Positions 40,627-50,015 of a DNA stretch of 60,211 nucleotides are shown here, piece after piece. The stretch lies in NCBI GenBank assembly GCA_045047095.1, contig JASFYS010000046.1, positions 1 through 60,211 of the forward strand. Reading direction: 5' to 3'. The position numbers were made by a program, and so were the translations under genes. The notes beneath the pieces are model-generated. The model saw only the letters and a list, made by a program, of their open reading frames with translations. It ran no database searches and was not told the origin of the DNA. The stretch's first letter is position 1. Every line of letters begins with the position of its first letter. The stretch is from Desulfuromusa sp. Its GTDB lineage: Bacteria; Desulfobacterota; Desulfuromonadia; Desulfuromonadales; Geopsychrobacteraceae.

Positions 40627-41973
40627 TTACCTGATTCCATATTCTTTCAACTTGCGCCTGAGCGTGAGTCGATTGATCCCAAGAATATCTGCCGTATGAG
40701 TTTTGTTGTGATCCGTCTTTTTATAAACTGTGAGAATATGTTGTTTTTCGACTTCAAAGAGCGGTAGCATTTCATCTATTGTTGATCTAACTTCCGAACA
40801 ACATCCTACCAATGTCAAATCTTCAGGGGTGATAGTCCCACCAGAATGGAGAAGTGTCGTGCGTTCAATGACGTTTTTCAGTTCTCTGACATTTCCAGGC
40901 CACGGGTGCTTTTTAAGACAAGTCAATGCGGCAACAGAAAACTCGCAGTTCTTCTCCGGGCTGTGCAACAGAAATTCTTTGAGGAACAGATTTGCCAATA
41001 ACGGGATATCTTCCGGATGATTTCGTAAGGAAGGAACCTGAATAGGAAACACGTTGAGACGATAGTATAGATCTTCACGGAACAGACCTGATTGGATCTG
41101 CTCATACAGATTTCTGTTGGTCGCTGTCACGATACGGACATCAACATGAATCGGTTGTTGTCCGCCAATTCGGGTCACCGTCATATCTTCAAGAACCCGA
41201 AGCAGTTTAGCCTGTAGCCCCGGTTCCATTTCAGCAATTTCATCCAGAAATAACGTCCCGCGATCGGCAAGTTCAAAGAGCCCTTTCTGACTATTTTTTG
41301 CGTCGGTATAAGCACCTCTCTCATGTCCAAAGAGCTCATTTTCCAGGAGCGATGCTGGCAGAGCAGCACAGTTAATTTTGAGCAATGGCCCTTCGCTACG
41401 AGAACTCTGATAGTGAATAGCTTCTGCCACTAATTCTTTCCCAACACCACTTTCACCCAGAATCAGCGTCGTCGTTGCATTGGCTTTAGCAACCAACATA
41501 ATTTCCTGACGGATCTTTTTGAGGGTATTAGAATCCCCTTCAAGGCGGGTCCAGGAACGTTTATTGCGCTGTTTTTCACGTTGTCTGAAGGTCTTCACCT
41601 CACCGCGCAATTGACGCGTTTCCATTGCTCTTTCAACCAATATTTGTAACTCGTCCAGATCAAACGGCTTGTTGATGTAGTCAAAAGCTCCTAATTTTAG
41701 AGCGGTAACAGCAGTCTGTACCTCTGGAAAGGCTGTAGCAACAATAACCAACAGGGATTGTGGGTCAGGAACTTCTGCAAGCAGATCGAGACCAGAACCA
41801 TCAGGCAATTTCATATCCAGAATCATCAGGTCAAAATCGTGTTGACGCATTTCCTTTCTGGCTTCAAAGAGGGTCTCAGCACTTAGGGCGATATAATTTT
41901 CTTGCTGGAAAAAATCAACCAAACTCTCACGCAGCATCTCTTCATCTTCGACAATCAGAATCCTCCCGCGCAT
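40627..41973 (-). CDS. Sigma54-dependent NtrC-family response regulator (REC-AAA+-HTH)
   Basis: VEDE/LDMKLPD receiver, GESGVGKE, ENELFGHERGAYTDA, FREDLYYRL, WPGNVREL, Fis-type HTH. Confidence 0.93.
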   Translation of the reverse strand: MRGRILIVEDEEMLRESLVDFFQQENYIALSAETLFEARKEMRQHDFDLMILDMKLPDGSGLDLLAEVPDPQSLLVIVATAFPEVQTAVTALKLGAFDYINKPFDLDELQILVERAMETRQLRGEVKTFRQREKQRNKRSWTRLEGDSNTLKKIRQEIMLVAKANATTTLILGESGVGKELVAEAIHYQSSRSEGPLLKINCAALPASLLENELFGHERGAYTDAKNSQKGLFELADRGTLFLDEIAEMEPGLQAKLLRVLEDMTVTRIGGQQPIHVDVRIVTATNRNLYEQIQSGLFREDLYYRLNVFPIQVPSLRNHPEDIPLLANLFLKEFLLHSPEKNCEFSVAALTCLKKHPWPGNVRELKNVIERTTLLHSGGTITPEDLTLVGCCSEVRSTIDEMLPLFEVEKQHILTVYKKTDHNKTHTADILGINRLTLRRKLKEYGIR

Positions 41974-43925
41974 CCGCTACCTCCCTCTGGAAAATAAATA
42001 CTGGCTTCAACACCACCATGGGGGCGGTCGTTAAGATCGATTGTCCCCTTCATTTCAGCAACCAATTGTCTCACAATTGCCAGGCCTAACCCGGTTCCCT
42101 CGGGTTTACTGGTCACCAGTGGTTCAAAAAGCTGGTCAATCAGTTCTGCTGGTAAGCCGCAGCCATCATCATAAATTTTGATCTCAATCTGCCCCACGGA
42201 TCGACGTGCAAAGACATCAACTTGTCCATTTTCATCACAGGCTTGCAGCGCATTCAGAATGAGATTCATAAAGATCTGGTGGAGATACTGTGCTTTTGAG
42301 CAGACTAGTAGTGGCTCAGAAGGTAAATGGAGTTGTAATTGAATTTTATGTCGATCTGCTTCTTCGCAGAGGATAAAAGCAAGATCACGCAAAACTTGGC
42401 TGACATTTATCTGTTCTCGCTCCTGGTTCTGTTGTGGCGCCAGGTAGCTGGTTAAATGTCCAAGGAAATCTCCCAGACGATCAACCAGGTTCAGCATTTT
42501 GGTGATATCCAGCTGCAGTTTCTGATCAAGATCCGTGCGGCGTTGTAGCAGTTGCAGTTTCACCCGCATTCCTGCCAGGGGATTACCTATCTCATGGGCG
42601 ACAGTTGCTGACAACATTCCCAGCGAAGATAGCCTGTTTGCCTGCAACAGTTGCCGCTCTAAAGTTAGCATCAGCTTCTCGGCTGCATCTGCTTCTAGTT
42701 GCGAGCGATTAAGATCGGCGACCCTTTTTTCAACCTCTTCCTTTAAAAGCATATTCCAGTTAAGGAGTTCTGCATGTGTTTGTTGTTGAGATTGTGCCAT
42801 TTCATTCAAGGCACACGATAATTCTCCAAATTCATCACGACTGGTAATATTTACAATTGTCTCAAAATTGCCAGCAGCAATAGTGTTAGCAAAGCGGGAC
42901 AAACGACGAATCGGACGACTAAAACGCCGAGCTGCAATAATTGCCAGGGTCGAAGCAAGCAGGGCAAGCAATAGAAAAGAAAAGATGAAGGTTTTTTTTA
43001 GCTGCTTTAACTCGGCATAGAGATATTTCTGCGGGTAAGCAATGGTTAAATACCAGAGATGTCCAAATCCGGCACTGACCGATGCCGTAGCCAGGATATC
43101 AGACTGTACTGCGGCAACATTAGGCGCTTCATCTGGCTTGGGAAACAGACGTATGATCTGCTGGAAATTATCAAGTTCAGAGTTGTCGGCACTCAAAAAA
43201 TTAACCTTGCCTGCGTAGCTGTCCATCTTGATAAATTGATGGTTCTGATTGAATAGCAAAATACGAGTTCCATCGACATTGAGCAGATATTTCAGAGATG
43301 AAAGCAATTTTTCACCAAAGACATTGATGATAACCAGCCCTGCGGTTGCCCCTGAAGGATCGAGAATTGGGGCGGCAACCCTGACAACCAAACGTTTAGG
43401 CTCTTCGACCCGACCAAATTCCATATTAAGATCAAGATGCGAAACATAGGTTCCTCCTGGAGGGCAATGAAAAGCCTCCTGGATATAGTAGCGGTCACTT
43501 TTATCCTGTAAGTTGGATTCTGGAACCAGAACCGCTTTTCCATCAATATTGTTGATCCGCAGTTGTTCACGCCCATCCTTAGAAATAAAACGAATCTGAT
43601 AATAATCTTTTTCTACCATGATGGCCGCAAGAAACTCGTTCTGTATCAATGCCCATTGATCAGCATCCATATCCTTCTTGAGTCTCCGCTGTAAAAACCG
43701 GGCAAGAGAACGGACATCTCTTCTGACACCATTCAGATAATCTTCAATCGAGTTACCTGCCGTGATGACTTCCGCTTGTAACTCCTGATTAATCTGCGCG
43801 CGCAACGCTTTTTCCATGTGCTGCAAAGAAAGATTTCCCAAAAACAAAATTGGACCCAGAGACAGACCCAGAAACGCAATCAACATTTTTCTTCGAATTG
43901 ATAACGTTACCTGTGGAAACAGCAT
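41955..43925 (-). CDS. Sensor histidine kinase (periplasmic Cache-like + HAMP + HisKA + HATPase)
   Basis: Two TMs, YYQIRFI...QDKSDRYY Cache-like region, AHEIGNPL, NLILNALQA, DDGCG, GTGLGL. Confidence 0.92.
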   Translation of the reverse strand: MLFPQVTLSIRRKMLIAFLGLSLGPILFLGNLSLQHMEKALRAQINQELQAEVITAGNSIEDYLNGVRRDVRSLARFLQRRLKKDMDADQWALIQNEFLAAIMVEKDYYQIRFISKDGREQLRINNIDGKAVLVPESNLQDKSDRYYIQEAFHCPPGGTYVSHLDLNMEFGRVEEPKRLVVRVAAPILDPSGATAGLVIINVFGEKLLSSLKYLLNVDGTRILLFNQNHQFIKMDSYAGKVNFLSADNSELDNFQQIIRLFPKPDEAPNVAAVQSDILATASVSAGFGHLWYLTIAYPQKYLYAELKQLKKTFIFSFLLLALLASTLAIIAARRFSRPIRRLSRFANTIAAGNFETIVNITSRDEFGELSCALNEMAQSQQQTHAELLNWNMLLKEEVEKRVADLNRSQLEADAAEKLMLTLERQLLQANRLSSLGMLSATVAHEIGNPLAGMRVKLQLLQRRTDLDQKLQLDITKMLNLVDRLGDFLGHLTSYLAPQQNQEREQINVSQVLRDLAFILCEEADRHKIQLQLHLPSEPLLVCSKAQYLHQIFMNLILNALQACDENGQVDVFARRSVGQIEIKIYDDGCGLPAELIDQLFEPLVTSKPEGTGLGLAIVRQLVAEMKGTIDLNDRPHGGVEASIYFPEGGSGCAGGF

Positions 43926-43983: not shown

Positions 43984-44046
43984 TGGATAGAAAGGTACCA
44001 CATAAACGGTTAATTATGAACCATACAGGTGGTTTTATTTTTACCA
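43984..44046. promoter_or_regulatory. Three phased imperfect palindromes, candidate bEBP enhancer (UAS)
   Basis: TGGATAGAAAGGTACCA (43984), CGGTTAATTATGAACCA (44007) and TGGTTTTATTTTTACCA (44030): YGG-N11-CCA at an exact 23-bp period. Confidence 0.6.
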
Positions 44047-44096: not shown

Positions 44097-44112
44097 TGGC
44101 ACGCTTTCTGCT
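44097..44112 (+). promoter_or_regulatory. Sigma54 -24/-12 promoter of the cytochrome operon
   Basis: TGGCACGCTTTCTGCT: GG(44098-99)-N10-GC(44110-11). Confidence 0.8.
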
Positions 44113-44191: not shown

Positions 44192-44848
44192 ATGGAAAAC
44201 AATGGAAAGAAGACTTTTTTTGACAAAGGTGAGTTCTGTAAAAAATTTCTGCTCCCCGGAGCTGTCATTCTTATTCTTATTTTCTTTTTCTGTGGAGATA
44301 AAAAACCTGATATCCCTGACCCTGTTCCACTTAAGGCTGAATGGTATACACCGGAAACTGCACGTGGAGAGATTCTGGAAAATACCGTCATGCCGGGAAA
44401 TTGTTTCATCTGTCACAGTGTTCAAGTGCCAGACCCGAGTGTCATTCGTCCACAGTTTGCCCATGCAACAGTTAAACTGGAACATGGTGCCAATAATCGT
44501 TGTTTCAATTGTCACCATATCTATGATCGTGACAGCCTGGCTGGTGATGGTGAAAGCAAAATACCCTTTGCAACTCCTGAAAAACTCTGTGCCCGATGTC
44601 ACGGTCTTATTGTTAAAGACTGGCAGGAGGGAACTCATGGGTTGAGACAAGGCGGTTGGTTGATTAAAAATGGTGCAAACCCAGTTAACTTCACCTGTAC
44701 TGAGTGTCATGATCCCCATTCCCCAAAATTCAAATATGCAATTGCAGCTCCTGCTCCGGTTTGGCCCAAGAAGACAATCCGGACAACCAAACATGATGAA
44801 GATCCTAAATCTGCATACTTAATTGAATCACACCAGGAGAGCTTCTGA
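44192..44848 (+). CDS. Membrane-anchored tetraheme cytochrome c
   Basis: N-terminal TM; CFICH, CFNCH, CARCH, CTECH. Confidence 0.88.
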   Translation: MENNGKKTFFDKGEFCKKFLLPGAVILILIFFFCGDKKPDIPDPVPLKAEWYTPETARGEILENTVMPGNCFICHSVQVPDPSVIRPQFAHATVKLEHGANNRCFNCHHIYDRDSLAGDGESKIPFATPEKLCARCHGLIVKDWQEGTHGLRQGGWLIKNGANPVNFTCTECHDPHSPKFKYAIAAPAPVWPKKTIRTTKHDEDPKSAYLIESHQESF

Positions 44849-45798
44849 TGAGTACAGAAGAGCAAAAAGACCTTGAGCTGAACACCGAAAACCAGCAGGA
44901 ACCAGTTCTCAGTCGCCGCTATTTTCTTGCCGGAACAGCCTGTCTGTCAGTCGCTGCGGCAGTATCTTTATCACCGTTGCTGAATGCTGAGGAGGTTCCT
45001 TCCGCAGATGACTTTATCCAGCAGCATTACAACGAATTGAGTGATGAGGATAAAAAAGAAATCTTTGCCCGGCTCGAAGCTGAGGTTAAAGAAAAATATG
45101 GGGTAGCTGCTACGATATCTGACCCCCCACCCATGGAAGGTGTTGAGTTTGCTTATGTTCTCAACTTGGGGCGTTGTATCGGCTGCCGAAAATGTGTCTA
45201 TGCCTGCATGAAAGAAAATAATCTTTCCCGCAGCCCACAAAAACAATACATCCGCGTTCTGAAGATGAAAAAAGGCGCCATCAACCTGGAAACATCAAGC
45301 CATGACTATCCGGAGAAAGAAGCGGCTAGTGATGATTTCTTCTACATGCCCGTTGCTTGTCAGCAATGTCGTGAACCCAAATGTATTGAAGTCTGTCCGG
45401 TAAAAGCGACCTGGCAAGAGAAGGACGGCATTGTTGTTATCGACTACAACTGGTGTATCGGTTGTCGCTATTGTGAAGCAGCCTGTCCATACCACGCCAG
45501 ACGTTTCAATTTTGCCGCACCACAGGTTCCCGCGGAAGAGTTAAATCCAGACATGGGATATCTTTCCAATCGTCCACGCTATATGGGCGTCATGGAGAAG
45601 TGTACTTTCTGCCTGCACAGAACCAGGCGTGGCGAGTATCCAGCCTGCATGGAGGTCTGCCCGACTGGATCACGGAAATTTGGCAACCTCAGGGATCCCG
45701 AGAGTGAAGTGCGCAAAATAATAGAGCAGGAACGTGTATTTGTACTTAAACAGGAAGCCGGGACACTCCCGAAATTCTATTACACGTTTGCTAAATAA
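44848..45798 (+). CDS. Tat-exported 4x[4Fe-4S] protein (NrfC/DsrO/HybA-like)
   Basis: SRRYFL twin-arginine motif; CIGCRKCVYAC, CQQC..PKCIEVCP, CIGCRYCEAACP, CTFC..ACMEVCP. Confidence 0.9.
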   Translation: MSTEEQKDLELNTENQQEPVLSRRYFLAGTACLSVAAAVSLSPLLNAEEVPSADDFIQQHYNELSDEDKKEIFARLEAEVKEKYGVAATISDPPPMEGVEFAYVLNLGRCIGCRKCVYACMKENNLSRSPQKQYIRVLKMKKGAINLETSSHDYPEKEAASDDFFYMPVACQQCREPKCIEVCPVKATWQEKDGIVVIDYNWCIGCRYCEAACPYHARRFNFAAPQVPAEELNPDMGYLSNRPRYMGVMEKCTFCLHRTRRGEYPACMEVCPTGSRKFGNLRDPESEVRKIIEQERVFVLKQEAGTLPKFYYTFAK

Positions 45799-45847
45799 CG
45801 GGTCAGGAATGTTTTCACTTGCCAACTATTATCCGAAGGGGTGATCA

Positions 45848-47062
45848 ATGAAAGCTGGTTTTTCAGGATTTGTTAGTCATGCGGTCAAATCTATTTTGAT
45901 CGGAAATCGAACTTACACCTTATGGATGTTTGGGCTGATTGTTATCAGTATGTTTGGACTGAATGCCTTCAGTCGCCAGATTGCTCATGGCCTGTACACA
46001 ACCGGTATGGGGGATGAAGTTTCCTGGGGGCTCTATATCTCAAACTTTGCCTTTTTGGTGGGAATGGCTGCAGCAGCGGTTATGATGGTTATCCCGGCCT
46101 ATATTTTTAAAGACGAAGAAATCCACAAAGTTGTCATTTTTACCGAATTATGGGCGATTGCCGCACTAACCATGTGTCTGCTCTTCATCACCGCTGATAT
46201 CGGCCGCCCCGATCGTCTCTGGCACATGATCCCATTCCTCGGGATATTTCACTGGCCGATGTCAATGCTGACTTGGGATGTTTTAGTTTTAAACGGCTAT
46301 CTGCTCCTCAACATATACGTCTGCGGTTACGTTCTTTATAAAAAATATCATGGTCAAAAGCTGGTCGCTCGCCATTATCTCCCATTTGTCTTTCTTGCTA
46401 TTGCCTGGGCACCATTAATTCATACGATAACTGCATTTCTCTTCCAAGGATTGGCTGCCAGACCTTTCTGGCATACCGGTCTGATTGCACCTCGCTTCCT
46501 AGCATCTGCATTTGCTGCCGGACCCGCATTTATCATTCTGGTATTTAAAGTGATGGATTATTTTAAATGCTGCAAAATCCATCAGGATGTGATTGCGAAG
46601 ATACGGGTCATCATCACCGTCAGCTTATTAGCCAATCTACTTCTGGTAGGATCGGAACTTTTCACCGAGCTTTATTCCGGTTCTGAGCACTCTATCCACT
46701 TGGCTTTTCTGCTCGGCTTTCATGGGCCAAGCGTCCTCGCTCCATGGATGTGGGGCGCTATCATCCTCAATGTAATCGCAGCAATCATTTTACTTTTACC
46801 GGTGCGCCAAAACCCGCAGTTTTTAACCGTTGCCTGTGTCATGATAATTGTCGGTATCTGGGTTGAAAAAGGGTTGGGCTTTGTCATTTCCGGTTTTGTT
46901 CCAACACCACTCGGCGATTTTGTTCAATATCAACCATCACTCAACGAACTGACGGTCTGTTTCGGCATCCTGGCTTTTGGACTGCTGGTCTATACAGCAT
47001 TGCTGAAAGTTGCTGTACCAATTATCAATGGTGAACTCTGCCACAGAGAGAATAATGATTAA
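45848..47062 (+). CDS. NrfD/PsrC/DsrP-family quinol-interacting membrane subunit
   Basis: VSWGLYISNF, DIGRPDR, HTITAFL, APRFLASAF; many TMs. Confidence 0.88.
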   Translation: MKAGFSGFVSHAVKSILIGNRTYTLWMFGLIVISMFGLNAFSRQIAHGLYTTGMGDEVSWGLYISNFAFLVGMAAAAVMMVIPAYIFKDEEIHKVVIFTELWAIAALTMCLLFITADIGRPDRLWHMIPFLGIFHWPMSMLTWDVLVLNGYLLLNIYVCGYVLYKKYHGQKLVARHYLPFVFLAIAWAPLIHTITAFLFQGLAARPFWHTGLIAPRFLASAFAAGPAFIILVFKVMDYFKCCKIHQDVIAKIRVIITVSLLANLLLVGSELFTELYSGSEHSIHLAFLLGFHGPSVLAPWMWGAIILNVIAAIILLLPVRQNPQFLTVACVMIIVGIWVEKGLGFVISGFVPTPLGDFVQYQPSLNELTVCFGILAFGLLVYTALLKVAVPIINGELCHRENND

Positions 47063-47099
47063 GAACAACTCTTTACTTGCATCAAACAGGGAGGTCAAT

Positions 47100-49463
47100 G
47101 TGCAAAAAAAATTATTAATGATGTTACTGACTATTGGAGTCGCTTTCAGCTTCAGCTCTATGGTGTACGCAGCAAGTGGTTGTACCACTAACGACTGCCA
47201 TGCCGGACTCGAAGAGATTGTTCCGCCAGATTTTCCCATGTCGCAACAGCTAAAAATGAACGGGCAGATGCATGGCGATCCTGAAGGGTGCGTCATGTGC
47301 CACGGTGGGAATCCCACAGCAACCAAGAAGGAAGAGGCGCACAAAGGGATCCCTGCAACGTTGCGGATGGCTCCCGGCCCTAAAGATTTCTATCCTGATC
47401 CTGGTTCGATCTGGATTTCTCAAAACACCTGTGGTGTCTGTCACGTCGGCTATGTCTACCGCTCACAACTTTCGTTAATGAACACTGAGGCTGGCAAAAT
47501 CTCTGGCAACATGCACACTTGGGGCATGGAGGAAGTCGCCAACCACAAAAATCCATGGGGTAACTACGACGTTGAAGATACAGATGGTCAAAAGCCGCTA
47601 GTAGGAACACCCACGTATCAGAAATACATGGCTGACCAGATCAGCATGTATCCTGAGCAGTATCCAAAAAGTCTGAAACAGATGCCGAATCCGACCATGG
47701 AAGAGGTAAAAAAAGACCCGAAGAAAGCCGCATTTGCTTATCAGCGTCAAGATTGTAACCGCTGCCATCTCGGTGTCAAAGGTCGGGAAAAGCGCGGCGA
47801 TTATCGTGGTATGGGTTGCTCAGCCTGCCATATTCTCTACAGTAATGATGGTTACTACGAAGGCAAAGACAAGAGCATCGACCCGAAGAAAAAAGGGCAC
47901 ATGCTTAGACACCGCATCGCCGGAACCCGTAAAACTGGCGGGATCCCGGTCGAAACCTGTAACTCATGTCACAATCGTGGTAAACGAATTGGAACATCGT
48001 TCCAGGGTCTGATGGAATTCCCCTACGGATCTCCTTTCGATGAAAATGGCAAAATCCAACCTAAGCTCCACACCAAGAGATATATGTTTGTCTCTGACGA
48101 CCTGCATCATCAGCAGAAGAGTCGTGAAGGAAACCCCGAAGGCGGGCTTCTGTGTCAGGATTGTCATACCAGTATCGATATGCACGGTGACGGCAATATC
48201 CATGGAACCACTATGGGTCAAGTCGAGATCGAGTGTACCGATTGTCACGGCACTCCAAAGGCGTATCCATGGGAACTTCCTGTCGGTTATGGCGATGAGT
48301 TTGGCAAAAGAGCTCAGACCAAACCACGTGGCACAGCGACGAAGCAATTGGTTACCGTGCAACAGTTCGGCGACCCCTTTGAAGTTGAAGATGGATATCT
48401 GATTACTGCCCGTGGCAACCCATTGGGTAACGTTGTCCGGCGAGGAGATAAGGTCATCGTCCACTCAGCAACCGGTAACGATTTTGAGGTTCCGGCACTG
48501 AAGGGTCTGGCTGTCAACAAGAAGTGGAAGAACCCTGATGCACAGGTTGCCATGATGGCAGTCAGTGGTCACCTTGAAAAGATGGAGTGTTACACCTGTC
48601 ACGCTTCATGGGCACCACAATGCTACGGTTGTCATGTCAAAGTTGATTACAGCAATGACAAAAATGGCAAACAAAAAGGTGGGACTGACTGGATTGCTTC
48701 GGGCAACAGCCACGATTCCCACGGCCAGACAGCTGAATCAAAACTAGGTTCAAAAGGTATCTTTACCTCAGGCAAACCAATGGAAAAACGGTCGTATCTG
48801 CGCTGGGAAGATCCGGTTCTCGGAATCAGCGGTGAAGGACGTGTGACTCCACTGATGCCTGGTTGCCAGGTGGTTTATACTGTTGTTGACGATACCGGTA
48901 AAGTCATTGTCAATAACATGATTGCCGATGCCCCGGATGAAGCCAAATATGTGGGACAGGAACATGTTCCATTGGCAATAGATATGTCACCGGTTCAACC
49001 ACATACAGCACAACGTAAAGCCCGTACTTGCGAGAGTTGCCACGGTAATTCTAAAGTTGCCGGTCTTGGTATCGGTGATGGCACTTTCGGTCTTGGACAA
49101 AATAAGCCCGTTGTTGAAGATCTGATTGACGCCAAAACCGGGAAAGTTATCCCAAGTAAGTATAGTGTTCAGATCCCGGCTATTCCAAAGCTGGACTTTG
49201 ACTGGTCACAGATTGTTACCCGCGATGGCGTCCAGCTGGCAACCGTTGGATCTCACTGGCCACTCAGCCGCGCATTCAACAAGAAGGAAATTGATACCTT
49301 CATGCGCACTGGCACTTGTATGGGTTGCCACCAGAACATGAGCCAGGAAGATCTATGGAAGAAGGTCAGTGAAGACGGCAAACTTGATTTCAAACAGCAC
49401 AATGAGATGATGAATAAAATGCTTCACAATATGGCTAAAAATGCTCCAAAAATTAAAAAATAG
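47100..49463 (+). CDS. Large periplasmic multiheme cytochrome c (11 CxxCH + 1 Cx4CH)
   Basis: GTG start at 47100 after a GGAGG RBS; signal peptide. Motifs: CTTNDCH, CVMCH, CGVCH, CNRCH, CSACH, CNSCH, CQDCH, CTDCH, CYTCH, CYGCH, CESCH, CMGCH. Confidence 0.88.
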   Translation: MQKKLLMMLLTIGVAFSFSSMVYAASGCTTNDCHAGLEEIVPPDFPMSQQLKMNGQMHGDPEGCVMCHGGNPTATKKEEAHKGIPATLRMAPGPKDFYPDPGSIWISQNTCGVCHVGYVYRSQLSLMNTEAGKISGNMHTWGMEEVANHKNPWGNYDVEDTDGQKPLVGTPTYQKYMADQISMYPEQYPKSLKQMPNPTMEEVKKDPKKAAFAYQRQDCNRCHLGVKGREKRGDYRGMGCSACHILYSNDGYYEGKDKSIDPKKKGHMLRHRIAGTRKTGGIPVETCNSCHNRGKRIGTSFQGLMEFPYGSPFDENGKIQPKLHTKRYMFVSDDLHHQQKSREGNPEGGLLCQDCHTSIDMHGDGNIHGTTMGQVEIECTDCHGTPKAYPWELPVGYGDEFGKRAQTKPRGTATKQLVTVQQFGDPFEVEDGYLITARGNPLGNVVRRGDKVIVHSATGNDFEVPALKGLAVNKKWKNPDAQVAMMAVSGHLEKMECYTCHASWAPQCYGCHVKVDYSNDKNGKQKGGTDWIASGNSHDSHGQTAESKLGSKGIFTSGKPMEKRSYLRWEDPVLGISGEGRVTPLMPGCQVVYTVVDDTGKVIVNNMIADAPDEAKYVGQEHVPLAIDMSPVQPHTAQRKARTCESCHGNSKVAGLGIGDGTFGLGQNKPVVEDLIDAKTGKVIPSKYSVQIPAIPKLDFDWSQIVTRDGVQLATVGSHWPLSRAFNKKEIDTFMRTGTCMGCHQNMSQEDLWKKVSEDGKLDFKQHNEMMNKMLHNMAKNAPKIKK

Positions 49464-49499
49464 CCACATATATTGAGAAGACTCTCTCCTCTCAATTCC

Positions 49500-49531
49500 C
49501 CCGGCAGCTTCTCGCTGCCGGGGATTTTTTT
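49500..49531 (+). terminator. Rho-independent terminator closing the cytochrome operon
   Basis: CCCGGCAGC-TTCTC-GCTGCCGGG then A and a T run. Confidence 0.8.
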
Positions 49532-49550: not shown

Positions 49551-50015
49551 TTGAATCGATTACTACTACAACTGATAGCAATTCTGGAAATTATTGGCGG
49601 TGTCTGGGGCCTTTCTATAATGCTTTACCGAATGGCAAACGTCCTGGATACTTTTAAGTTCCTGCTGTTTATGCTGCTGTATCTCGTTCCATTTATTATC
49701 AGTATCATTGCCGGCATTCTATTATTCAAACAAAAGACCGCAGGATTAACCCTTTCCCTGGTTATTCAACTGCTACAAATCCCCTACTTTGCCTTAGCTG
49801 GGCTCTATTATTCATTCATTTCCGGGGTACTAGCTGGCATCAGAATTAGCTTACTGGAAGGGATAACTCACTACAATTTTAATTTTCTTTTTGGGGGGTA
49901 CTGTCAGATACAAACAGGTTTACCGGTTGAAATTTCAGCTTTTGGCATCAATATATTTGCCGTTGTTACTTTCAGTTTTTTACTTATATATAAGTTGCAA
50001 GGTAAAGAAGCCTGA
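49551..50015 (+). CDS. Hypothetical integral membrane protein
   Basis: Several hydrophobic helices. TTG 49551 (AGGA upstream) is preferred because the track start lies upstream of the terminator and would read through it. Confidence 0.6.
   Translation: MNRLLLQLIAILEIIGGVWGLSIMLYRMANVLDTFKFLLFMLLYLVPFIISIIAGILLFKQKTAGLTLSLVIQLLQIPYFALAGLYYSFISGVLAGIRISLLEGITHYNFNFLFGGYCQIQTGLPVEISAFGINIFAVVTFSFLLIYKLQGKEA

Follow-up and report, generated by a model that had tools for sequence, protein, structure and literature searches.

A Conserved Four-Gene Unit of Desulfuromusa sp. Joins a Cbc4-Type, Probably Quinol-Oxidizing Trio to a Candidate Twelve-Heme Reductase

Organization of the Locus

The stretch of DNA analyzed here (hereafter the window) comprises 60,211 nt of contig JASFYS010000046.1 from Desulfuromusa sp. 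and carries on its forward strand four tightly packed open reading frames (ORFs; 44192–49463), which encode a membrane-anchored tetraheme cytochrome c, an exported protein with four [4Fe-4S] clusters, an NrfD/DsrP-type membrane subunit, and a large periplasmic twelve-heme cytochrome (table 1). The first two genes overlap by one base (position 44848), and the gene for the large cytochrome starts with a GTG preceded by a GGAGG site. A first-pass annotation made from the sequence alone had placed these genes, the last described as a cytochrome of ~790 residues with ~12 hemes, between one promoter and one terminator; all four ORFs were found, together with a sigma-54 promoter element ahead of them and an intrinsic terminator behind them. 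The trio formed by the first three genes lies upstream of the twelve-heme gene in nine of ten related genome loci, the tenth contig being too short. Judged from these sequences, the four genes are a conserved unit, which is probably inducible and joins a known kind of quinol-oxidizing trio to an uncharacterized, probably catalytic twelve-heme protein with a likely core of the octaheme tetrathionate reductase (OTR) type.

The annotation had also pointed to the absence of a molybdo-subunit, and this was borne out: no such gene adjoins the operon, and the only Pfam Molybdopterin matches of the genome are on two other contigs (C107 and C87). The locus differs in this respect from the NrfD modules of molybdoenzymes (Psr, Ttr, Arr, Qrc, and alternative complex III), whose molybdopterin-family subunit is missing here.

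Table 1. Features of the Operon and Its Regulators, with Positions in the Window
Feature	Position	Strand	Basis or description
NtrC-type response regulator (receiver, sigma-54 activator AAA+, Fis helix-turn-helix)	40627..41973	-	Pfam PF00072, PF00158, PF02954
Sensor histidine kinase (periplasmic dCache of vpHK1S-Z8 [PDB 3LID] type, HAMP, HisKA, HATPase)	41955..43925	-	Pfam, PDB match
Two imperfect inverted repeats, GGT-N9-ACC type	44007..44046 (44007-44023, 44030-44046)	+	Conserved columns in 9 aligned promoters
Sigma-54 -24/-12 promoter element	44097..44112	+	TGGCA and TTCTGCT invariant in 9/9 aligned promoters
Membrane-anchored tetraheme cytochrome c, CbcS-like	44192..44848	+	218 aa, 4 CxxCH, one N-terminal hydrophobic helix
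Twin-arginine (Tat)-exported 4x[4Fe-4S] protein, CbcT/DsrO/NrfC type	44848..45798	+	316 aa, S-R-R-Y-F-L twin-arginine motif, 16 cluster Cys in four groups
NrfD/DsrP-type quinone-interacting membrane subunit, CbcU-like	45848..47062	+	404 aa, Pfam NrfD, 10 predicted hydrophobic helices
Periplasmic twelve-heme cytochrome c, long-form ExtM/CbcM-superfamily paralogue	47100..49463	+	787 aa, Sec-type leader
Heme 4 motif C219-x-x-C222-H223	47754..47768	+	Aligns with OTR catalytic heme II; candidate open heme
Heme 10 motif C508-x-x-C511-H512	48621..48635	+	Absent from OTR; co-occurs with Cys589
PGCQ motif with lone Cys589	48858..48869	+	Candidate His/Cys heme ligand or metal ligand
Intrinsic terminator	49499..49530	+	10-bp stem 49499-49523, then T-run; -23.8 kcal/mol

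Promoter and Two-Component System

Of 44 such sigma-54 elements matched across the 2.97-Mb genome, this is the sole one in the window. It precedes the operon in eight of ten related loci, the exceptions being one short contig and one Desulfobacterales locus. A sigma-70 promoter scan yielded 13 sites versus 13.1 expected, that is, chance level. The two inverted repeats sit 50–90 bp upstream of the -24 element and are likely activator-binding sites; a strict form of the pattern recovered one box in six of eight relatives. The putative activator of the operon is likely the divergently encoded NtrC-type regulator, which adjoins it in seven of ten related loci.

The best PDB matches of the periplasmic sensor domain (42980–43835, minus strand) of the partner kinase are 2P7J and 3LID (E 4e-5), and the latter structural relative is listed with phosphate bound (PMC8534201). 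Among 401 whole genomes of this phylum, the best relative of the sensor domain (E 5e-51, the next being at 8e-33) adjoins a 61%-identical twelve-heme gene. Neighborhoods of twelve-heme homologues were sampled at 90 loci (80 from metagenomes and 10 from genomes, many on short contigs): the same sensor type stands beside the twelve-heme gene at nine of them, compared with 48 matches in the 401 genomes. Linked sensors need four changes on a 38-row tree, and no ligand-specific motif separating them from unlinked relatives was found. The conserved sigma-54 site, the two upstream inverted repeats, and the divergent dCache kinase with its sigma-54 activator now provide the basis for calling the module inducible, as the first-pass annotation had done.

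The Probable Quinol-Oxidizing Trio

Four histidines additional to the motifs of the tetraheme cytochrome (His91, His98, His149, and His176) are invariant in 24 of 24 aligned rows, and four bis-His hemes are predicted for this subunit. The best model for the Fe-S subunit is DsrO, whose cut-off it misses (179.8 bits vs 200). The membrane subunit matches PF03916 (E 7e-36), passes the DsrP model (377 bits, cut-off 350), and keeps His126, His192, and several Asp, Glu, and Arg residues invariant in 30 of 30 rows.

The trio had been likened to Cbc4 (CbcSTU, GSU0068-0070) of Geobacter sulfurreducens, a comparison that its composition supports: both have an anchored tetraheme cytochrome in which all four hemes are predicted to be bis-His, together with an Fe-S protein of four clusters and an integral membrane subunit, and both are devoid of a molybdo-subunit. 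Unlike Cbc4, the Desulfuromusa unit adds a twelve-heme fourth gene and a divergent sigma-54 two-component system. The physiological role of Cbc4 is still to be established (PMC13591261); CbcS donates electrons outward, and no dedicated enzyme is involved when it reduces PpcA-type carriers (CbcS preprint).

We also considered the DsrJOP part of DsrMKJOP, given the score of the membrane subunit above the DsrP cut-off and the proximity of the Fe-S subunit to DsrO. This identity was rejected, as the DsrO cut-off is missed and no dsrMK is found among the neighbors. Moreover, because the cytochrome is a tetraheme protein, in contrast to the triheme DsrJ, and because no dsrA (TIGR02064) was found in the host genome, which is 100% complete by markers, the trio is not part of a DsrMKJOP complex.

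The partners of related trios were surveyed at 20 loci obtained from strong non-self matches of the window's NrfD protein. A catalytic partner is present at 11 of them: HAO-family octahemes at seven, NapA-type proteins at five (three shared with HAO loci; two of the five were checked against NCBIfam, one being above cut-off), an NrfA/ONR-like protein at one, and a Qrc/Arr-like protein at one. At the remaining nine there are large multihemes or a second module, or else no candidate is evident. In four of the 20 loci the order is cytochrome c, Fe-S protein, NrfD, and octaheme, which is the window's order with an octaheme in fourth place. Because partners vary across sister loci, the trio appears to act like a NapC/NrfH replacement that takes different clients. 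The same four-gene layout (cytochrome c, 4Fe-4S protein, NrfD, and large multiheme) has been described in T. dismutans and D. thermophilus, where it was proposed, though not tested, to serve nitrite or sulfur-compound metabolism (PMC5276818); the large cytochrome there is a HaoA homologue, whereas that of Desulfuromusa is a twelve-heme member of the ExtM superfamily.

A DsrP-like trio subfamily (L090–L109), 45–53% identical to the window's NrfD protein, is widespread and serves NapA, HAO-type, NrfA-type, and 16-heme partners. As its scores nevertheless exceed or approach the DsrP cut-off, the label "DsrP" in databases may be misleading.

The Twelve-Heme Cytochrome Is a Distant Paralogue of ExtM

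The large cytochrome contains 11 CxxCH motifs, one CX4CH motif (residues 28–34), and a single unpaired cysteine, Cys589. The CX4CH position is likely a heme site: among 149 homologue rows, it reads CX2CH in 72 and CX4CH in 66, and leaves the pattern unmatched in 11. The family is large, with 2,645 proteins at E ≤ 0.001 and matches in 58 of the 401 genomes.

By sequence comparison the protein is a distant paralogue of ExtM/CbcM (GSU2935; NF040943) of the ext/Cbc6 cluster, with which it shares twelve hemes in the same order, collinear heme motifs, and the PGCQ cysteine. It is not ExtM itself. It scores 208.8 bits against the ExtM model, far below the curated cut-off of 800, and is only 25% identical to the genome's own ExtM, which scores 1050 and belongs to the complete ext cluster of contig C190. 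It differs from ExtM by ~170 more residues with extra conserved Lys and His, by having no ext genes nearby, and by its partner, which is the NrfD trio rather than a cytochrome b/Rieske complex. Published accounts of ExtM go no further than a conserved protein with 12 hemes in the ext/Cbc6 cluster (PMC5877670, PMC11976967, PMC13591261), and in a search of mostly open-access literature we found neither a function for an ExtM-type cytochrome nor a link to OTR. A PDB sequence search with the twelve-heme cytochrome returned no relative, and the ESM Atlas only generic cytochrome c3/c7 clusters.

Close homologues in the 90 loci have other partners too, namely TPR modules, alternative complex III, and Fnr with heme-lyase genes, or nothing visible. 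In one clade (L173–L176, L179, L183, L184, L186, L188, L189, L191, and L193), the twelve-heme gene is followed by one for a TPR protein (20/90 loci) and one for a Pfam-less protein of ~205 residues (12/90). In a third clade (L195, L197–L202, L204, L205, L208, L210, and L242), it is paired with a gene for a small exported Rap1a-like protein (12/90), often with a Crp/Fnr regulator and heme-lyase genes.

A Probable Relation to OTR

An AlphaFold2 model of the heme-free cytochrome was obtained with high confidence (pLDDT 93.8, pTM 0.92). When it was compared with 48,161 chains by VIA-align, OTR (SO4144, PDB 1SP3) ranked first (Z 6.4, root-mean-square deviation 4.6, 268 aligned residues; next match Z 3.0; repeat Z 6.7), although these Z values are below the 7–8 that the tool calls common for unrelated models, so that a match with Z<8 may be due to chance. 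Profile alignment with 20 OTR-family rows placed hemes 4–8 on OTR hemes II–VI in local mode (probability 98.4) and, in global mode (probability 99.6), OTR hemes I–VIII on hemes 3–9 and 11, with heme 4 on OTR heme II. Shuffling all columns other than the heme motifs halved the score (from 124.9 to 61.2 ± 9.5, maximum 78.7, n=14), and residues between the motifs thus carry signal. The OTR model TIGR04315 (cut-off 375) has no match on the window's contig.

We consider common ancestry with OTR likely, and hemes 3–9 and 11 probably correspond to the eight hemes of OTR, the match being a moderate one. The two proteins would share this core and a C-terminal beta domain. Several distal histidine positions of OTR line up, at H336, H362, H491, and H635, while M127 stands in place of an OTR histidine and Gln302 in place of a distal one; the Desulfuromusa protein also has four more hemes and two long insertions. 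Catalysis in OTR takes place at heme II, which has a Lys ligand (PMC3769277, MmcA preprint), and its equivalent here, heme 4, is kept in 105 of 106 rows.

Candidate Heme Ligands

Distal ligands were sought in a broad set of 106 diverse rows and in a closer set of 91 rows. Eleven ligand-type columns (7 His, 3 Met, and 1 Cys) are available for the twelve hemes. Seven are near-universal His or His/Met columns in the broad set (H81, M127 [M/H], H271, H336, H362 [H/M], H491, and H635); for M47 and M485, according to an alignment read by eye, a His or Met close by seems to stand in among most of the short forms; H767 tracks heme 12, being present in 64 of the 75 rows that have this heme; and the last is C589. 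Since only seven distal His columns are universal, we rejected a wire with all hemes bis-His. With 11 ligands for 12 hemes and the mapping on OTR, the simplest assignment leaves heme 4 without a distal ligand, which would make it the most likely open site as far as sequences can tell.

Cys589 is likely a ligand of heme 10, as judged from their co-occurrence. In the broad set, both are present in 72 rows and both absent in 21, with the heme alone in 11 and the cysteine alone in two (93/106 concordant); in the closer set, agreement is complete (both in 90 rows, neither in one). His/Cys ligation is a catalytic feature of TsdA and MccSep (PMC13510729). Like MccSep (ExtKL) and TsdA, the protein strictly keeps a non-motif cysteine tied to one heme, but no match to either was found in sequence or fold, and it has no selenocysteine. 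His512, the histidine of the heme 10 motif, is often kept when both of the motif cysteines are lost (P0125, P0137, P0139, P0143, and others; His in 93/106 rows, full motif in 83/106), and may for this reason have a second role.

The protein has a mass of 7.0 kDa per heme, as against 5.5 for the genome's ExtM; as a rule, wires have <5 kDa per heme and enzymes >7 (PMC7096707).

A Putative Menaquinol-Fed Reductase

The reading that we favor, although we hold it at somewhat less than an even chance, is that the unit encodes an inducible enzyme, fed by menaquinol, that reduces a small, soluble anion of sulfur on the periplasmic side. A periplasmic anion, likely an oxyanion, would activate the dCache kinase, and the activator would in turn open the sigma-54 promoter. 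The NrfD subunit would oxidize menaquinol and pass the electrons through the four Fe-S clusters and the bis-His tetraheme cytochrome into the twelve-heme chain, in which heme 4, lined by Arg, Lys, and His residues conserved in the subfamily, and/or the Cys-linked heme 10 would reduce the substrate. With Cys589 as its ligand, heme 10 would be coordinated like the His/Cys hemes with which TsdA and MccSep carry out S–S chemistry.

A catalytic role is favored because of the probable OTR-type core, the heme-coupled cysteine, the mass per heme, and the enzymes that occupy the fourth position of sister operons; the dedicated sensor, of a type that recurs beside the twelve-heme gene, was counted on the same side. 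Cys589, the kinship with OTR and ext proteins, and a process of elimination speak for a sulfur anion. Because polysulfide, tetrathionate, and nitrite each have a candidate enzyme elsewhere in the genome, our leading guesses for the substrate are thiosulfate, a polythionate, or sulfite. The proposal of the first-pass annotation that the large cytochrome is the catalytic terminal enzyme is thus upheld in part: the core, the cysteine, and the sister slots argue for it, but the active-site cysteine of OTR is missing and no open heme was seen. The annotation had named two outcomes as fatal to its proposal, membership of a known family with an assigned role and purely bis-His hemes; what we found is a relation to ExtM, for which no assigned function was found, and a ligand pattern that makes all-bis-His ligation unlikely.

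A number of observations weigh against this reading. Concerning the OTR-type core, a model of residues 101–521 alone still has OTR as its first match, but with a Z of only 3.9 (HAO 3.0), and Foldseek searches of the PDB with the whole and core models found nothing at E ≤ 0.001 (OTR, E 1.6). The profile match is lost when the CxxCH letters are masked (probability 8.9), and HAO-type profiles also reach probabilities of 87.6–96.5, at half the OTR score; an HAO-type core was itself rejected, given these lower profile scores and Z values of 3.0–3.1. As for the active site, the cysteine of the OTR NNFC motif has no counterpart, the only non-motif cysteine being C589 in the C-terminal domain; a Gly-Lys pair (G132-K133) does lie between hemes 3 and 4, with K133 in 82 of 91 close and 40 of 106 broad rows, yet global alignment puts the OTR lysine elsewhere. 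Five more histidines are conserved in the 91 close rows (H324 in 83, H719 in 81, H455 in 81, H267 in 70, and H337 in 64), any of which could fill the twelfth site. Because the heme 10 motif is in a beta-strand of the heme-free model, a Cys3His metal site is possible instead of a His/Cys heme, and the mass per heme lies just at the enzyme threshold. Regarding the genetic context, a complete trio adjoins close homologues in only seven of the 90 loci, falling in two clades; the well-supported branches of the 38-row sensor tree allow a single origin of the linked sensors; and the sensor family is common (35/401 genomes) and shares the pocket motif. Finally, the case for a sulfur substrate is one of analogy and elimination.

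Alternative Roles

The best-surviving alternative, which we nevertheless regard as rather unlikely, is that the twelve-heme protein catalyzes nothing itself and acts in the periplasm as a relay or a store of electrons, linking the trio to MccSep, the TtrA-like molybdoenzyme, and outer-membrane conduits, its Met and Cys ligands serving only to tune potentials. The short paralogue ExtM, which also keeps the PGCQ motif, sits between a cytochrome b/Rieske complex and MccSep, a separate enzyme proven to reduce polysulfide (PMC5877670, PMC13510729); its place downstream of MccSep leaves room for a wire role. MmcA, which has the OTR fold, is a conduit (MmcA preprint), family members adjoin several different quinol complexes or stand alone, and the reduction of PpcA-type carriers by CbcS (CbcS preprint) illustrates that such a trio may do without an enzyme of its own. 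However, MmcA has lost heme II, whose equivalent the present family retains, and the additional residues and conserved Lys and His of the long subfamily are lacking in the short ExtM forms. The dedicated ligand sensor and the mass per heme also fit an enzyme better than a relay.

If the protein is catalytic, its substrate might instead be nitrite, hydroxylamine, or NO, as sister trios mostly serve nitrogen enzymes of the NapA, HAO, and NrfA types. This is improbable in our view: His/Cys hemes mark sulfur enzymes (PMC13510729), the genome has a separate pair of NrfH-like and HAO-type octaheme genes with its own regulators, NapA was not found among its two molybdopterin matches, and, aside from octaheme genes at a few of them, the 90 loci show no recurrent nitrogen-enzyme cluster among their neighbors. 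NrfD-type modules are known to run both ways (QrcD/ActC vs NrfD/PsrC), homologues adjoin genes for alternative complex III and oxidases (L209, L238), and TsdA-type His/Cys hemes are oxidative, all of which would suit a cytochrome that oxidizes sulfide, sulfite, or thiosulfate and a trio that reduces menaquinone as QrcABCD-type complexes do, but this reverse direction seems the least probable of all, as the host is Desulfuromusa-like and this group is known for sulfur and iron reduction, dsrA was not found, and CbcS was shown to donate electrons outward.

A bolder extension of the favored reductase reading, which we find doubtful, is that the long-form ExtM superfamily as a whole is an unrecognized class of enzymes that descend from OTR and have twelve hemes, two of which would be active sites: heme 4 as an open heme and heme 10 with His/Cys ligation. 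Such enzymes would perform a molybdenum-free, multi-step reduction of sulfur oxyanions, for example from thiosulfate or polythionate through sulfite to sulfide, with electrons from whichever quinol complex a lineage provides, and their induction would run through an oxyanion sensor that recurs.

With one promoter, one sensor, one quinol-oxidizing unit, and one candidate enzyme, the locus is a clean test case for a large family for which no assigned function was found. The OTR mapping and the ligand count single out the residues of the heme 4 pocket and Cys589, and a simple ligand screen with the sensor domain could reveal the substrate. A reductase of this kind, if real, would represent a molybdenum-free route to anaerobic sulfur respiration and would bear on the roles of ExtM, Cbc4, and OTR.

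Other Candidate Respiratory Enzymes of the Genome

Three further loci of the same genome encode candidate respiratory enzymes. The ext cluster on contig C190 (3240–12616) is of the canonical kind (extI, KL, M, N, Rieske, cytochrome b, and S); because an in-frame TGA of its extKL falls where MccSep has selenocysteine, the genome likely encodes a selenocysteine-type polysulfide reductase. On contig C6 (25436–27389), genes for an NrfH-like tetraheme cytochrome and an HAO-family octaheme cytochrome, a candidate nitrite or hydroxylamine reductase, are paired with a divergent two-component system. Contig C87 (8856–13817) encodes a 1045-aa Tat molybdoenzyme that is nearest to TtrA (451 bits, cut-off 1750), together with NrfD and Fe-S partners.

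Distribution and Neighboring Genes

Among 22 further genomes sampled from the genus, 10 yielded a close copy (at least 76% identity, some partial), whereas five that are near-complete carry only the short ExtM type. Outside the genus, the next relatives of the twelve-heme protein are in Desulfobulbales (~68%). Because of this patchy occurrence and of the Desulfobulbales relatives, the unit looks accessory. A plasmid search gave 13 weak partial matches, none spanning 80% of the query, and no RNA run carrying the locus was among the matches listed in a search of sequencing runs.

Directly after the terminator, a gene at 49566–50015 (+) encodes a small membrane protein with no Pfam match, present in four related loci and missing in L002. 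On the other side of the operon, beyond the regulator pair, the segment 36221–40611 (+) encodes a small membrane protein and then a 1083-aa protein, in which a hydrophobic, transporter-like N-terminal half without a Pfam match is fused to GAF and SpoIIE phosphatase domains. These are followed by two apparent anti-sigma-system genes, presumably for an anti-sigma antagonist and an anti-sigma kinase, and the group is kept beside the regulator pair in several relatives.

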